Below the pieces are notes generated by a model. The model made no database searches, was not told the origin of the DNA, and saw only the letters and a program-made list of their open reading frames with translations. The position numbers and the translations under genes were made by a program. A DNA stretch of 64,000 nt from an uncultured Puniceicoccaceae bacterium (lineage in GTDB: Bacteria > Verrucomicrobiota > Verrucomicrobiia > Opitutales > Opitutaceae): assembly GCA_963933925.1 (NCBI GenBank), contig CAWVWU010000001.1:1231-65230 (forward strand), read 5' to 3'. Shown here one piece after another: positions 260 to 14,511 of this stretch. How positions within the stretch are numbered: position 1 is the first letter of the stretch; each line of letters starts with the position of its first letter.

Positions 260-626
260 GACTGCATATATAGATTGCATTAAATCGCGCCTAAAACAAG
301 GAAATTGATGAACAGTATAACATTTAGTTTTAAACGGCGAGGATGGTGAGGAGTGATCCGGCTGTTATTAGCTACGCCATCTCCGCTTCGTTTCGTCTCA
401 CTGCGTTCGTTGGGGTGGTCTCCCGCATGCGGGATCGGTACTCGTTGATACGCCGAGACTAGATGGTGAGGGGGAGGGATGGAGCCCGACGTCGCGTGAC
501 CTACGAAGTTACCGAATATACTTATGAGTAGGTGGAGTCTTATTTAATGACATATTATTCTTAAGAGATTCAGCTGAATTGTACTTTCTGTGGACTTGAT
601 AGAGCCGCTTAAGTGAGGCCATTCCT

Positions 627-643
627 GTCTGACCCCTTTTGCG
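627..643 (+). repeat. J motif copy 1 (short)
   Basis: GTCTGACCCCTTTTGCG, about 70 nt from the stop of the 712-870 ORF. Confidence 0.5.
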
Positions 644-3197: not shown

Positions 3198-3220
3198 TAT
3201 CAATAAGCACAGTCTGGCCC
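3198..3220 (+). repeat. J motif copy 3
   Basis: TATCAATAAGCACAGTCTGGCCC, near-match to 7990-8013; 38 nt from the lactonase stop. Confidence 0.6.
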
Positions 3221-3257
3221 GAATGGCGCTCACTTAAGCGACTTTTCGCTTAGGAAG

Positions 3258-4370: not shown

Positions 4371-4478
4371 GATGTGACTGGATTTTGGTTGGGGTGTGAT
4401 AGGAAAGTCGAAACAAGGACTTCGATCGTATTACAATTGATTGTGGGACGTCTCTTGTCTCCGGGCCCTTTTCGTTTT

Positions 4479-4521
4479 TGTTATAACATTACGAGAGGGC
4501 TCCTTTTGCAAGTGAAGCGAG
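4479..4521 (+). repeat. J motif copy 4
   Basis: TGTTATAACATTACGAGAGGGCTCCTTTTGCAAGTGAAGCGAG, preceded by GGGCCCTTTTCGTTTT as in copies 8 and 9. Confidence 0.8.
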
Positions 4522-6790: not shown

Positions 6791-6951
6791 GAGATCGGCT
6801 TCGCTTAAGCTATATTTGATTTCTTGGCTCATGTTTGTAATTGCTGATTAAGGTGTGCTTTTTTTCGAGAGGGTTATTTTCATGGCAAAGCATGAAGGTG
6901 GTTTTTGGGGGCGGATCGTGGAGAAGGGTGTTGGGGTGTTTGGGGCCTAAA

Positions 6952-6992
6952 TGTCAAACATTACGACCTGCCCGCTTTGCGAGTGGAGCGAG
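6952..6992 (+). repeat. J motif copy 5
   Basis: TGTCAAACATTACGACCTGCCCGCTTTGCGAGTGGAGCGAG, preceded by GTTTGGGGCCT; 23 nt from the rsuA stop. Confidence 0.8.
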
Positions 6993-7014
6993 CCCCCCCC
7001 CCCCGGTGTTAGGT

Positions 7015-7713
7015 TTAGGGATTTGGATTTGAGAAGGACTGCACTTCATCGTTTGTTAGAAATCGCCAGTCTCCGAGGGGGACGTCGAGTGATATCTCCC
7101 CGATTTTCTCGCGGTGCAATGAGATGACTCGATTACCGACGGCTGAGAACATGCGTTTGACCTGGTGGTATTTACCTTCGGTGATCGTTAATCTAGCTTC
7201 TTTCGGACCAAGGATTTGTAAGTTTGCTGGTAGAGTTAATTTGGATTCGCCTTGTAGTTGAAATCCACTCTTAAACCGTTCGATCAAGCCTTCCGTTAGA
7301 TCTCGAGATAGACCGACACGATACACTTTCTGACAGTTATTCGCTGGTGTGATAATATCGAATGTCCAACGACCATTGTCGGTGATCAGTACTAAACCCG
7401 TGGTATCGGCATCCAATCGCCCGGCTACATGTAATTCTGAAACCTTCTCGATCTCCAAGGAATTGAAGAGAGACGGATAGGCTCCATCGGCATTCGAGCA
7501 AATCGTGCCCGAGGGTTTGTGCATCAGAAGGTAACGGAAGCTCCGCGTTTTCAGTAATGTGCCATTGAGAGTGATCGTATTATTCTCGTGCACCTGTGCA
7601 GCCTCGTCAGTGATCGTATCACCATTGACCTTCAGTTGGCCATTGTGGATGCATTGAACCGCTTCAGACCTCGTGTATTCGGTACTTTTGCAAACAAATC
7701 TATCTAGGCGCAT
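7015..7713 (-). CDS. rsuA: 16S rRNA pseudouridine(516) synthase
   Basis: N-terminal S4 domain MRLDRF; HKPSG, AGRLDADTTGL catalytic Asp, EGKYHQVKRMF. Confidence 0.9.
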   Translation of the reverse strand: MRLDRFVCKSTEYTRSEAVQCIHNGQLKVNGDTITDEAAQVHENNTITLNGTLLKTRSFRYLLMHKPSGTICSNADGAYPSLFNSLEIEKVSELHVAGRLDADTTGLVLITDNGRWTFDIITPANNCQKVYRVGLSRDLTEGLIERFKSGFQLQGESKLTLPANLQILGPKEARLTITEGKYHQVKRMFSAVGNRVISLHREKIGEISLDVPLGDWRFLTNDEVQSFSNPNP

Positions 7714-7738
7714 GAGAAGGGTTTTTTCCTGTGGGAAT

Positions 7739-7756
7739 TGAAGATTGAAGGGTGAG
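7739..7756 (+). repeat. TGAA-led heptamer repeat
   Basis: TGAAGAT TGAAGGG TGAG upstream of rsuA. Confidence 0.4.
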
Positions 7757-7820
7757 CTCTTCGATGGGCTCAGGATCTACGAGGGTGTGTTTTTTTTAAC
7801 CACGGAAGGGGTGCTGTGAA

Positions 7821-8017
7821 TTTTTTAACCGCCCATCCGCTATGCGGATTCGAGGACGCTGAGAGGGGGAGGTACTCTGATTTTGGGATCGAATCTTCAA
7901 TTTGTAATTTTCATTTACCGCTTGGTGGTGTTTTTCGGGGGCGGTGTATTGATTCGAAACTGACTCTTGAGATTGTTCCGGAGACATTATGTCAATAAAC
8001 ACAGTCTGAGCCCTTTG
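7821..8017 (+). repeat. Direct repeat B copy 1 (ends in J motif copy 6, 7990-8017)
   Basis: Ungapped match to 8529-8725 (offset 708); I count 7 mismatches over the first 178 nt. Confidence 0.95.
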
Positions 8018-8340
8018 TAGCCTACGGCGATAGTGGCGGATGGGTTGTAGTGAGCGGTATGGTAGTTTTTGCTGTCGGCGGCAGTTATTCGAAATTTTCG
8101 AACAACTGAATCTTCGGAGAGTTCATTGTCTTCGAAGATCTTCTTGATGTGATAGTTGATGGTGTGCGTTTTGACGTCGTAGAGCTCTCCCATCATCTTT
8201 TGGCTGAGCCAGATGTCTTCGTTCTCGTAGATCGCTTCGACGCCGCCTTCGCCAGTGGCGGCAATGAAGGTTAGGTACTCGACGGCTGAGGAGCGAACGA
8301 TGGAGGCGGGCTTCTTCTTTTTGTCGGGATCTTTGCTCAT
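7987..8340 (-). pseudogene. rhuM: RhuM-family (virulence RhuM-like) gene, 3'-truncated
   Basis: SSAVEYLTFIAATGEGGVEAIYENEDIWLSQKMMGELYDV...VRKFRITAADSKNY...AVGYK, then leaves homology inside J copy 6. Confidence 0.8.
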
Positions 8341-8341
8341 G

Positions 8342-8435
8342 GGAGGTTGTGTTTGAGGAAGCTTTGATCGAGGGCGACTCTATTGTCTTTGTCGAGGGTG
8401 ATTAGGTCTTGTTCGAAAAAAGGGGGAGTGAGTGG
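8342..8435 (+). repeat. Repeat C copy 2
   Basis: Matches 1850-1944; minus strand reads ...FFEQDLITLDKDNRVALDQSFLKHNLP*, with the stop overlapping the rhuM ATG (ATGA). Confidence 0.85.
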
Positions 8436-8528
8436 GGGAGAGTCGAAAAATGGACCTTCGATGTTTGAGTCCTTTCTTGTCAGGCGGTGACTTTGCTCAG
8501 TACAGGTCAGGATCTGCGAGTTGTGCTA

Positions 8529-8725
8529 TTTTTTAACCGCCCATCCGCTATGCGGATTCGAGGACGCTGAGAGGGGGAGGTACTTTGATTTTGGGATCGA
8601 ATCTTCAATTTGTAATTTTCAATTACCGCTTGGTGGTATTTTACGGGGGCGGTGTATTGATTCGAAACTGACTCTTGAGACTGTTCCGGAGATATCATGT
8701 CAATAAGTACAGCTTGCCCCCTTTG
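8529..8725 (+). repeat. Direct repeat B copy 2 (ends in J motif copy 7, 8698-8738)
   Basis: Ungapped match to 7821-8017; continues CGAGTGCAGGGAG. Confidence 0.95.
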
Positions 8726-8787
8726 CGAGTGCAGGGAGCACTTTAAGCGTTACTTATGTCAATGGATCGTATGTTGGATATTTGGTG

Positions 8788-9762
8788 CTATTTGTCGCAG
8801 CATTTTTTGTATTTCTTTCCGCTACCGCAGGGGCAGGGGTCGTTGCGACCGACTTTGGGGGTGTCTCTAATGAAGGGTTGGTTGGAGGTCTCAGTAGGTG
8901 TGGAAAATGTGGGAAGGGGTTCCTCGTCGAAATTGTCCTCTTCGAGGTCTTTGTCTTCATCGAGATCGGTATCTTTGAATATTTCGTCGTAGAACTCTTT
9001 TTCTTTTTTAGCGGAGGCTTCGGTGAAGCAGTGCCAGGTTGAGAGTTCTTCGTGGGGGTGTTTTAGGAGGCGAAAAGTATTATCGGGAGAGTCTATTGGA
9101 TCCTTCTTTTGGAAGGCTTCTTCTATCTGTTCTTGGGAGTAGAAAGGCATGAAAGGGAAGCCTATTTCGTATTGGTCTTTTATGTGGGGGATGTGCTCTT
9201 CGATGAGAAAGGAGGTGGAGAGCTGTATGGCTGTGTTGCGGAGAACTTCGGGGGCGTCTTTGAGGGTGGATGTGTAGAGAGAATCTAAGTACGAAGTGAG
9301 GATGTCTCGGGAGATTTGTTTGTGGTGATGCAGGATGCCGATGGCACCGAGGGCGGCACTTCGGGAGTATTCGGTGACCCCGTCGTCGTCGACAAGAGCA
9401 TAGAGCTCTAGGGGTGAATCGAAGAAGCAGGCTGCCAGGATTTTGTCGAAGCCTTCACTTATAATGTCGTCGAATTCGTCTTCGGCTTCTTGGCTGTGGG
9501 CTATTTTCGAGAGGACGGTGCGGGCGGAGGTTTCTTTAAAGTGGCCAAGGAGATAGAAGGCGTAGAAGTGAAGCATGTAGTCGTCTTCAAATAATTCGTC
9601 GGGGTCTTCGAGTAGACTGCGTTCGAGGGCTTTGATGAGGTGGGGGATCGCTTCATCTTTACGATCGATGACGGCTTGAATATCATCTGCGGGATAGGGC
9701 CGTTTTAGGGAATAGATTTTTTGAAGGAAATCCGGGAGAGATTCGTAGAATTCTAATGGCAT
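8788..9762 (-). CDS. DUF1186-domain protein with C-terminal SEC-C motif
   Basis: [17 protein letters not shown]-terminal domain, acidic linker, [20 protein letters not shown]. Confidence 0.8.
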
Positions 9763-9988
9763 GGGATGTGGATGGTAAAAGTGAATGAGAAGCGTTTGTA
9801 GGGGATGAAAGCAAATGGAACGAGATCGTCAATGAGGACTGCGGTTTTTCTATGAGGGGAAGAGCCTTTAAATTGAGATCATTTGTGTGAGTAGAGCGAG
9901 TTTGGAAAGGATTTGGGGGCATTGGCCATTACCGAAATGCGCGGGATTGATTTGGAGGTGTAAGATCCGTCGTCTCTCTATCGAGCTT

Positions 9989-10080
9989 CAGTCTTCGCTC
10001 AAAGAGCTACGCCCCGACAGGATGCCGAGACTGGGAGAGATTTGGTTTCAGATTTCGCTCTCTGAGCTACGACCGACAGG
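9989..10080 (+). repeat. Two tandem REP-like units, 60 nt apart
   Basis: CAGTCTTCGCTCAAAGAGCTACGCCCCGACAGG (9989-10021) and CAGATTTCGCTCTCTGAGCTACGACCGACAGG (10049-10080). Confidence 0.7.
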
Positions 10081-10194
10081 GTGCTATTGTTTTAACAGCT
10101 GAGGAGGCTAAGGGTCACGGAGGATCTTGATTCGGTTGCGGTTTTGGGGGAACCACGGATTGAGACGGATGTGGGTTTGAGCCTTTGAGAAAGG

Positions 10195-11199
10195 CTATTT
10201 GGATAGGTTATTTATTTCTGCTTCTAGTTCAGTTAATCCGGCAACGATTTTTTCAAACGATGGACGCCGCCCGAAGATCATATCCTGCATGGCTGAATAA
10301 TCTTTGCCCATTGCGTTGAGAATATTGCTTGGCGGTATTAGTTTAAAGGTGCTCGGTTTTGCGGCATCATAGTTTGCCCAGGTTCTCGGGTAGAATCTCT
10401 TCTTAAAAAGAACCACATCATGCAGAAGGGGTAAGTTGCCTAACGCGTCCGACTTCAGCTGTTTATCTGAAGCCATCAGATGGAGGTCGTAATAGTGTCG
10501 GGAGTATCGCTCGGGAATGACTGAAGATTCGGGGCGGTGCGCTTCGTGATGTAGGATAGTCGCCTTTTCCCAGAAGGTGCGTTCGGCATCGATTGCACGA
10601 ACAGGGCAGATCGGGTCGTCGAATTGATCTGGGAAATCCTCGGCAGCGTAGGGTGTAATCGTATGCTCCGAATGCGGCAGCCAAGATGCCAATGGACCGA
10701 TTTCCAATTGAATGTATGGCAAAAGGCCACTCGTATCCACTGTATGAGGATAGGCAATGCGAACGACATGCCCTTGATCCTTTTCACCGGCTTTCACTTC
10801 CAGTTCGCAATGCGAGCCGAGTGCGTCTCTCAGGAGCGGCAACATTTTTTTGGTGATATGCTCCCGGGCCTTTTCGTTCAGCTCCTCATTGAGCTTTTGC
10901 TGTTTCGTCTTTGACCGTTCACCCATCGGGTCTTGTTCGCCGCTCGCTATTCTCCAATCTAGAACCAAGTCGATGTCTTCGGAAAAGCGGTCGATGAGTC
11001 CGTAGACCTTCGATAGGCTGGTGCCGCCTTTGAAGATTAGTTGTTTTGAAAGCTCTGGGTGCTCGAACAAGTGCTTCAGCGTCCAGCAGACCCAGAAGTC
11101 CTTTTCCACGATGGCACTCGTTCCCATTCCGCGCTGTTACGCCGTCACCATAAACAGTTCATTGCGATCTTTCGCCGAGAGTGCCGCAACGCGATTCAC
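10195..11199 (-). pseudogene. abiEii: AbiEii-family nucleotidyltransferase toxin with in-frame TAA at codon 21
   Basis: GTG start 11199 overlaps the antitoxin TGA; MNRVAALSAKDRNELFMVTA*QRGMGTSAIVEKDFWV...FKGGTSLSK...RFSEDIDL...ERTFWEK...RHYYDL. Confidence 0.85.
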
Positions 11200-12020: not shown

Positions 12021-12401
12021 AGAACCGTCCCGCTTAGGGGGAAATGCGAATACATGCGTACCGAGGCTGTAAGCCGACACATGAGGATCCCGCATGCGGG
12101 AGACGAAATATGATGAGGATGTTTTTGTTTAACCGTCCCGCTTAGCGGGATAAACTAAAGGCAGATTAGAAATTTGGTGGTTTTTTAACCGCCCATCCGC
12201 AATGCGGATTCGAAGACGCTACTTCGACTTTGCTCAGTACAGGTAAGGTCGCGAAGATTGAGAAGTGTTTTGGGGATTTCTTAGGTTGTGCTATTTTTTT
12301 TGACCACGAATTAGACGAATTAGACGAATCTTGATGTGGTTGTTATGGTTGTGTGTTTTTAACCGCTAAATTCACTAAAGGACGCTAAGGTCGCAAAGAG
12401 G
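12021..12401 (+). repeat. Array of five AACCRC + 9-10-nt periodic elements, three with nested hairpins
   Basis: Units at about 12021, 12127, 12181, 12290 and 12348, e.g. GACCACGAATTAGACGAATTAGACGAATC. Confidence 0.7.
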
Positions 12402-12606: not shown

Positions 12607-12731
12607 GGGTGTCGTGTTCTTTGAGTTCTTTGGAGAGGATTAGGCGGTAGCGGGGATCAAGGCGATAGTTTGGGGCCTTTCGTTTTTTGTTATAACATTA
12701 CGAGCTGGCTCCTTTTTGCGAGCGGACCGAG
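12607..12731 (+). repeat. Direct repeat A copy 1 (ends in J motif copy 8, 12688-12731)
   Basis: ...TTTGAGTTC.TTGGAGAGGATTAGGCGGTAGCGGGGATCAAGGCGAT.GTTTGGGGCCTTTCGTTTTT..., matches 14389-14511. Confidence 0.95.
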
Positions 12732-14388: not shown

Positions 14389-14511
14389 GGGTGTAGTGCT
14401 CTTTGAGTTCCTTGGAGAGGATTAGGCGGTAGCGGGGATCAAGGCGATCGTTTGGGGCCTTTCGTTTTTGTTAAAACATTACGACCCGACCCCTTTTGCG
14501 AGCGGAGCGAG
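14389..14511 (+). repeat. Direct repeat A copy 2 (ends in J motif copy 9, 14469-14511)
   Basis: Matches 12607-12731. Confidence 0.95.

Follow-up and report, generated by a model that had tools for sequence, protein, structure and literature searches.

General features of the locus

The window analysed here, a contiguous stretch of 64,000 nt, belongs to a metagenome-assembled genome (MAG) of an uncultured Puniceicoccaceae bacterium (designated G000; 3.9 Mb in 362 contigs, which break at repeats). Two relatives are referred to repeatedly, the complete single-contig genome G074 of the same order (contig C1) and the further relative G057. Between genes for an RsuA-like pseudouridine synthase and a DUF1186/SEC-C protein, a 5' fragment of the toxin-like gene rhuM is accompanied by two long direct repeats, each of which ends in the left arm of a short repeated motif termed J:

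7015–7713, minus strand: RsuA-like pseudouridine synthase gene; J copy J5 lies 22 nt past its stop codon
7820–8017, plus strand: direct repeat copy 1, composed of a head (approximately 7821–7880; T-run plus AACCGC), a unique body and the J left arm J6t
7987–8017, plus strand: J6t, the J left arm of copy 1, ending CCCTTTG; right arm missing; tip CTGAGCCCTTT(G)/TAGCCTACGG, the latter being rhuM antisense
8011–8024, both strands: junction CCCTTTG/TAGCCTA, read on the minus strand as GGC TAC AAA G/GG CTC
8018–8340, minus strand: rhuM 5' fragment, approximately codons 1–109, homologous to full-length RhuM
8341–8437, minus strand: 3'-end remnant of an upstream gene (..FFEQDLITLDKDNRVALDQSFLKHNLP and stop), its stop codon overlapping the rhuM ATG; second copy at 1850–1944
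8528–8725, plus strand: direct repeat copy 2, with head, body and left arm as in copy 1; J7 arm at 8697–8725
8726–8739, plus strand: J7 right arm CGAGTGCAGGGAGC, of the GCGAGCG.AGCGAGCC motif family
8788–9762, minus strand: DUF1186/SEC-C gene; stop codon 49 nt from J7

The RsuA-like protein shares only 42 and 38 % identity with the genome's own two copies on contigs C47 and C83 and 44 % with the best match in a same-genus genome; its gene is an accessory extra paralogue rather than the housekeeping copy. Synteny of the window with the same-genus genome was too diverged to be informative. The remnant upstream of rhuM, provisionally labelled an "HNH remnant", could be matched neither to sequence preceding rhuM in nine relatives nor to an intact copy in G000.

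The rhuM fragment and its junction

The ORF at 7987–8340 on the minus strand (117 aa) lies between the repeat copies, with its last eight codons in the J arm, directly followed by a stop. RhuM homologues were compared as open frames of 348–400 aa from nine genomes of the same order, and residues 1–109 share 66–77 % identity with the N-termini of these full-length proteins. All alignments stop at query residue 109 (..AVGYK), in agreement with the first-pass annotation, which had placed the end of RhuM homology at G-Y-K. Beyond this point the homologues read VNSERAVQFRKW, whereas the window reads GLRLCLLT and a stop, i.e. the J arm translated in frame. The Pfam RhuM profile (PF13310) is matched at positions 1–35 of 252 only, with 16.2 bits versus a cut-off of 33.7. 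Judged from these alignments, 8018–8340 lacks a complete RhuM domain and is the 5' fragment of a true rhuM gene, to be marked in the annotation as a pseudogene fragment. The 3' half of this gene is absent from the whole G000 assembly; a full-length rhuM paralogue, likewise matched by residues 1–109, is present on contig C125.

J similarity and RhuM similarity meet inside CAAAG, and the break is base-precise, so that the coincidence of the rhuM end with the J boundary claimed earlier holds. The native TACAAAG expected at this site was not found in the homologues: all nine read GGC TAC AAG GTN. Lysine codons within the rhuM fragment are evenly divided (6 AAA versus 6 AAG), and in G074 the sequence CTT(T/C) follows GACCC in 19 of 22 flanks of a related motif (see below), which bears on the question of whether AAG belongs to the element tip. 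If the tip itself supplies AAG, the native rhuM codon is unconstrained and the exact phosphodiester within C-A-A-A-G cannot be fixed; the joint is placeable only to within CAAAG. Of the crossover at CTTTG/CAAAG proposed earlier, CAAAG stands as a recurrent J boundary, with cleavage there as a putative step.

The junction at 8017/8018 is known from one MAG assembly only. The independent TARA Oceans scaffold TARA_B110000037_G_scaffold146892_1 matches window positions 8241–10653 at 100 % identity; since it begins 224 nt to the right of the junction, the latter rests on the G000 assembly alone. The match also places the MAG population in that public assembly.

The 198-nt direct repeats

The two repeats (7820–8017 and 8528–8725) are each 198 nt long, ungapped and 93 % identical, and their spacing of 708 nt is that given in the first-pass annotation. 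No more than these two occurrences were detected in the 3.9-Mb assembly. Their left edge is the start of the T-run plus AACCGC motif, which is itself dispersed (window 12181–12220 and five other contigs), and their right edge is CCCTTTG. Across this edge, the plus-strand sequence is ..GAGCCCTTTG/TAGCCTACGG in copy 1 and ..GCCCCCTTTG/CGAGTGCAGGGAGC in copy 2. Mismatches between the copies are unevenly distributed, with 7 in the first 170 nt versus 6 in the last 28 nt (Fisher p = 0.004), and a single recent duplication therefore fits poorly. Footprints of the miniature transposon K described below possibly account for the mismatch cluster, as the 11 nt duplicated by K coincide with the most-differing stretch. 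A coding function of the repeat was rejected; all seven differences in the body change a residue (frames compared by eye).

Distribution and properties of the J motif

Strict J copies, composed of left and right arm, number five, all of them in the window and in one orientation. J positions lie 22–87 nt past the stop codons of minus-strand genes. The left arm of approximately 30–50 nt ends in a C-run followed by a T-run (...GACCCC/GCCC-TTT(T)), and the right arm, GCGAGCG.AGCGAGCC, occurs in approximately 10 copies genome-wide in G000. The following copies and tips, written in plus-strand J orientation, complement those listed above:

4470–4521, plus strand: J4, full J, tip GGGCTCCTTTT/GCAAGTGAAGCGAG
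6951–6993, plus strand: J5, full J (left and right arm), tip CTGCCCGCTTT/GCGAGTGGAGCGAGCC
8697–8725, plus strand: J7 arm, tip TTGCCCCCTTT/GCGAGTGCAGGGAGC
12679–12731, plus strand: J8, full J, tip GGCTCCTTTTT/GCGAGCGGACCGAG
14460–14511, plus strand: J9, full J, tip CGACCCGACCCCTTTT/GCGAGCGGAGCGAGCC
J2: tip CTGCCCCTTTT(G)/GGAGGGGTG, 9 nt before a stop codon
Contig C70, second arm (C70b): tip CGACCCGACCCCTTTT/TATTCGACT-TACCAG...

Where J6t switches to rhuM, the full copies J4, J5, J8 and J9 continue GC(G/A)AG(T/C)G.A..GAG, as had been described for the other long copies. Strict J patterns yielded no match in 60 relatives or in the collections genome_contigs and metagenome_contigs, a looser pattern gave five matches in genome_contigs (chance level), and the motif of the relatives was found only with a relaxed pattern derived from the K-element flanks.

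DNA and RNA folding of J on the gene strand revealed no consistent or significant structure, most copies folding no better than shuffled sequences; when five left arms were folded as an alignment, 4 weak pairs without covariation resulted (-0.38 kcal/mol), so that a conserved hairpin is not supported. A consensus scan detected no terminator at any J, Rfam reported only the tmRNA in the window and nothing in 7700–8800 even at E<=1, and att repeats derived from ssrA were not found. J as the 5' end of a gene was likewise rejected: a 110-aa frame downstream of J8 is without homologue among 1.8 billion representatives and shows no similarity to Y1 N-termini. Contig C13 carries a tandem of three partial J units (1942–2002; GACCCTTTGCGAGCG / GACCCTTTGCGAGCGAAGCG / ..CTGACTCCTTTCGCGAGCGTAGCGAGCC), followed by the motif GTTACCTATGTCAATGRRTCGTA, which is also found after J7 (window 8749–8771) and after the copy on contig C41.

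A miniature transposon targeting the J arm tip

The sequence GCTTAAGTGAGTGCCATTC is located 26–36 nt from eight contig ends on seven contigs, and remnants of it were identified in the window and on C41. The sequence inside GCTTAAGTGAGTGCCATTC is of two kinds, representing the two ends of one element, here named K, with 19-bp terminal inverted repeats (GAATGGCACTCACTTAAGC). Its sites in G000 are:

Contig ends: C32 (both), C51, C62, C70, C83, C84 and C339
C41: 17175
Window 596–643, plus strand, formerly J1: K end remnant GCTTAAGTGAGGCCATTC (596–626; GCTTAAGTGAGTGCCATTC remnant at about 600–626), then CTGTCTGACCCCTTTTGCG
Window 3198–3256, plus strand, formerly J3: left-arm core CAGTCTGGCCC interrupted by K end remnant GAATGGCGCTCACTTAAGCGACTTTTCGC (3221–3256)

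Three times, a contig end of one kind pairs with an end of the other, the first 11 nt being exactly reverse-complementary; these pairs reveal perfect 11-bp target duplications (CAGCCTGGCCC, ACGTTTGACCC and ACCTCTGACCC; consensus ..YTGRCCC). Every K flank is a J-type left-arm core, and in G000 and G074 alike the duplication ends at ..GACCC, at the tip of the arm. Further genomes of the order contain K-like inverted-repeat elements of 100–240 bp, which are flanked in this manner too. Neither the K interior nor any transposase gene attributable to K is present in the MAG. By its ends and duplications, K is evidently a multi-copy miniature transposon that targets the J arm tip and breaks the assembly. 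The copies at about 600–643 and 3198–3220, formerly counted as J, are consequently reassigned to K ends with their 11-bp target duplication, and a supposed fourth J-arm variant (J1, J3, the first arm on C70, termed C70a, and C41) was dropped for the same reason.

At the contig end C62:18350, the arm tip adjoins the stop codon of an intact gene for a 748-aa glycosidase-like protein (..KLMLA TAA/AAGGGGTCAAACG). Homologues have frames of 751–755 aa; the element hence sits exactly at the gene end and leaves the gene undamaged.

A second gene truncated at the J tip

On contig C70, a left arm identical to that of J9 in 28 of 28 positions and ending at CCCCTTTT is directly connected to a damaged gene. 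The order is arm (GTTAAAACATTACGACCCGACCCCTTTT), TATTCGACT and a conserved membrane/TPR-like gene of which the C-terminal 149 residues are left (C70:1817–2299). Orthologues in three relatives comprise 280–299 aa and share 81–85 % identity; compared to them, only residues from about 135 onward are kept and approximately 135 N-terminal residues are lost, the start codon and the first 12 codons of the present ORF being supplied by the J arm. The missing 5' part was found nowhere in the G000 assembly. Judged from arm and orthologues, this truncation is independent of the rhuM case, and J is broken at the same boundary. Nine bases (TATTCGACT) intervene between the arm and clear gene homology, which counts against the transposon-end explanation given below. 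With the C70 arm ending here and the G074 copies diverging right after GACCCC plus T-run, this point recurs as a meaningful boundary of J.

A probably related element with a Y1 transposase gene

In G074, the K flanks read GTTAA(C/T)NTTTTGCGTTTGACCC, a motif (also written GTTAAYNTTTTGCGTTTGACCC) counted 22 times in G074 and 5 times in G057. A 1.36-kb G074 element, which carries a gene for a RAYT-like Y1 (HUH) transposase, has the sequence GGGGTCAAACGCAAAACATTAAC as its terminal inverted repeats. Two copies of this element align over approximately 1.36 kb and diverge immediately outside GGGGTCAAACGC... (GGGGTC...) and ...GACCCCTTTTTT; since similarity is lost just outside both tips, the motif represents the terminal inverted repeat of the Y1-gene element, the inverted ends being about 23 bp long. 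Four motif copies are located 36 nt upstream of the Y1 ATG (MPRKQRVEFPGAVYH..YIHLNPVRA; MPRKQRVEFPGAVYHIISRGN...), others follow directly after the Y1 stop codon in inverted orientation, and three pairs form inverted doublets of 74–90 bp:

G074 C1 1528750–1530700: example of a Y1 element
G074 C1 2528889–2528962: inverted doublet
G074 C1 2529837–2529926: inverted doublet
G074 C1 2679800–2681700: example of a Y1 element
G074 C1 3193111–3193200: inverted doublet

With 46 matches to PF01797 (Y1_Tnp), G074 harbours an unusually expanded family of the TIRYT/RAYT-like type. At one G074 locus, an IS3 element interrupts a Y1 gene; in parallel, a short Y1 remnant (..QGRFKSLIVEPGKHWTDLVDYIRVEP..) lies beside an IS3-type OrfA fragment in G000 (C333:100–500). 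A small repeat, CTYGCTYCGCTYC-GTTGAGGTGTCG, has inserted into the right-hand inverted repeat of the 1.36-kb G074 element (alignment A4, columns about 1369–1420) and is also found at C70:11509 in G000; its reverse complement resembles the J right arm GCGAGCG.AGCGAG.

The J9 arm and the G074 motif share approximately 68 % identity over 28 nt and the same tip of GACCCC plus T-run. Their homology is argued from position, tip, K target and intermediates rather than from a statistic and is to be read as probable in this sense. An intermediate is provided in G000 by the reconstructed empty site C32/C62 (GACTTTTGACGTTTGACCCCTTTT, K removed), which closely resembles the G074 motif; as K targets the same tip in both genomes, the J arm and the G074 motif were treated as the same target.

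The PF01797 search detected one Y1 gene in G000, on contig C129 (24.3 bits, above the cut-off). The encoded protein keeps the HUH motif (HFH in SNHFHVLV) and the catalytic tyrosine motif (AAYIDLNSV), and scores 54.7 bits with the NCBIfam model REP_Tyr_transpos (NF047646), below its 80-bit cut-off. The gene is flanked by 22-nt repeats resembling the left arm, which are direct rather than inverted and more divergent, and one of them runs straight into the J right-arm motif AAGCGAGCGCAGCGAGCC.

Origin of the rhuM junction

The analysis demonstrates the direct repeats and the point at which rhuM is truncated, the reuse of this tip at another truncated gene and, in a relative, a homologous motif serving as the inverted ends of a Y1-gene element. 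The explanation favoured here, and regarded as rather probable, takes the J left arm for the solo terminal repeat of mobile elements linked to RAYT-like Y1 (HUH) transposases, of the TIRtron/TIRYT kind, at the tip of which rhuM was destroyed. The end of J similarity (CTTT(T)G on the plus strand, CAAAG/GGG on the gene strand) would then be the physical outer end of the element. Either the element inserted in rhuM, with the element interior and the rhuM 3' half being lost later, or an adjacent deletion extended from the tip into rhuM; with the rhuM 3' half and the element interior both absent, insertion and deletion are indistinguishable. The Y1 enzyme would cut and join at the tip, and we infer this action as well as the order of events. 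The two 198-nt repeats may be viewed as co-oriented copies of one end module, one adjoining the 3' flank of the DUF1186 gene via GCGAGCG.AGCGAGC and the other adjoining rhuM codon 109; they are not products of cassette integration. Possibly the J right arm is a small element in its own right that lands beside these tips. The seven island copies are without exception solo arms of one orientation, a pattern that a simple inverted-repeat transposon leaves unexplained, and neither an inverted J partner nor a Y1 gene was detected in the 64-kb window. The co-orientation of the arms could reflect the strand bias typical of single-strand transposition, or else the cassette arrangement considered below.

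An unlikely account, though one that retains some weight, is enzyme-independent illegitimate recombination (slippage, template switch or end-joining) at CAA(AG), which would have deleted the rhuM 3' half and left the coincidence with the J boundary to chance or to an effect of the A/T run. The 3–5 nt of possible microhomology at the joint (CAA or CAAAG), the surrounding graveyard of gene remnants and small repeats, and a window devoid of recombinase and transposase genes are in keeping with such a process, and the 198-nt duplication could likewise stem from a template switch. However, the boundary recurs within about one base at the C70 truncation and equals the element tip in G074, and the contrast of 7/170 versus 6/28 mismatches (p = 0.004) is unlike a single recent duplication. 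A chimeric join of MAG contigs at the repeat is very improbable. It could be suspected in an assembly of 362 contigs breaking at repeats, the more so as the TARA scaffold ends 224 nt short of the joint; copy 1, however, shows copy-specific sequence variants to either side of the joint, and as the joint is located at the repeat edge and not inside the repeat, k-mers spanning it must exist in the reads.

The reading of J as an attC-kind site of cassette crossover was rejected, and J is better read as a solo transposon end. In its more general form, J would be an integron-like cassette site at which a dedicated recombinase exchanges at CTTTT/G, and the rhuM joint a secondary site; this is judged improbable. 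In its favour, J copies of one orientation lie 22–87 nt beyond the stop codons of accessory, toxin-antitoxin and defence genes on the minus strand, and long direct repeats with J at their end enclose two units (hipA-like and rhuM'). Against this stand the lack of an R''/L''-L'/R' architecture, of GTTRRRY at the inferred exchange point and of a significant fold, as well as the lack of an IntI-like gene, all seven PF00589 genes of the genome being on contigs without J; att repeats derived from ssrA are missing too, and a transposon end is the simpler explanation of the arm. Only a small chance is given to the variant in which the island on the tmRNA side consists of arrayed single-gene cassettes moved by a RAYT/TIRYT-like HUH enzyme, with the J left arm as left end, GCGAGCG.AGCGAGC as right end and CAAAG/GGG as head-to-tail joint. 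If true, it would amount to integron-like gene capture by a single-strand DNA transposase instead of an integrase, and such a system would have produced the rhuM joint at a secondary site. Under the favoured explanation, the rhuM joint marks a transposon end within a decaying island of a marine member of the Verrucomicrobiota and does not represent a new recombination system.

Comparison with known systems

RAYT-like genes flanked by inverted repeats with the tip GGGGWSAS were described and named TIRtrons/TIRYTs by Di Nocera et al. 2013 (PMC3733652), who found the repeats also dispersed as solo, dimeric and clustered copies. The present elements resemble this class in that inverted motif copies flank a RAYT-like Y1 gene at short distance, albeit in the relative G074 and not in the window. 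The TIRtron tip is matched in 8 of 8 positions by GGGGTCAG (J1, C41 and the first C70 arm) and in 7 of 8 by GGGGTCAA (G074), GGGGTCGG (J9) and GGGCTCAG (J6t). They differ in that the window contains only solo co-oriented arms, each just downstream of an accessory gene, that the G000 Y1 gene is flanked by direct and more divergent repeats, and that the 46 Y1 matches of G074 are far above the number usual for the class.

REPtrons, combining REP/REPIN sequences with a RAYT, are likewise associated with a Y1 HUH enzyme, which cuts single-stranded DNA beside the repeat (Nunvar 2010, PMC2817692; Messing 2012, PMC3479197; Quentin 2018, PMC6006769). REPs resemble J in being short and extragenic, in lying 3' of genes and in their link to a Y1 HUH enzyme that is domesticated or mobile; both are also hot spots at which rearrangements occur and other elements insert. 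Unlike REPs, J is not a GC-rich palindrome of 20–40 nt, possesses neither a GTAG or CGTC head nor a conserved hairpin, and is present in about 20 copies rather than hundreds. With attC sites and CALINs, J has in common co-oriented sites after promoterless accessory genes, a cargo of toxin-antitoxin and defence genes, and hybrid sites at a fixed exchange point; it lacks attC symmetry, the GTT exchange point and IntI, the break being at a CTTTT/G run and not at GTT. IS200/IS605 elements, which have no terminal inverted repeats and a TnpA of about 130–150 aa, are unlike the G074 element with its inverted ends, and the Y1 proteins of G000 and G074 measure about 330 aa. Deletions adjacent to transposon ends have one endpoint fixed at the tip and the other at an arbitrary position in a neighbouring gene, as with rhuM. 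The REP-targeting insertion sequences IS1397, ISKpn1 and IS621 use the repeat as specific target, as does K with the J tip; the enzyme classes differ, and for K no transposase gene was recovered.

Significance

To our knowledge, nobody has shown how TIRYT-type HUH enzymes act on their flanking repeats. Natural joints between an element tip and unrelated DNA, as described here, provide positional evidence for cutting and rejoining at a tip of GGGG/CCCC plus A/T run. The two tip joints found, each truncating a gene, indicate the oligonucleotides that a biochemist might use. The TIRtron/TIRYT class is already known and little studied, and the junction adds a further member to it. For the island, the picture is corrected: J sites are transposon ends, accompanied by a second small motif and by a third, miniature transposon which targets them, and not attC-like cassette sites.
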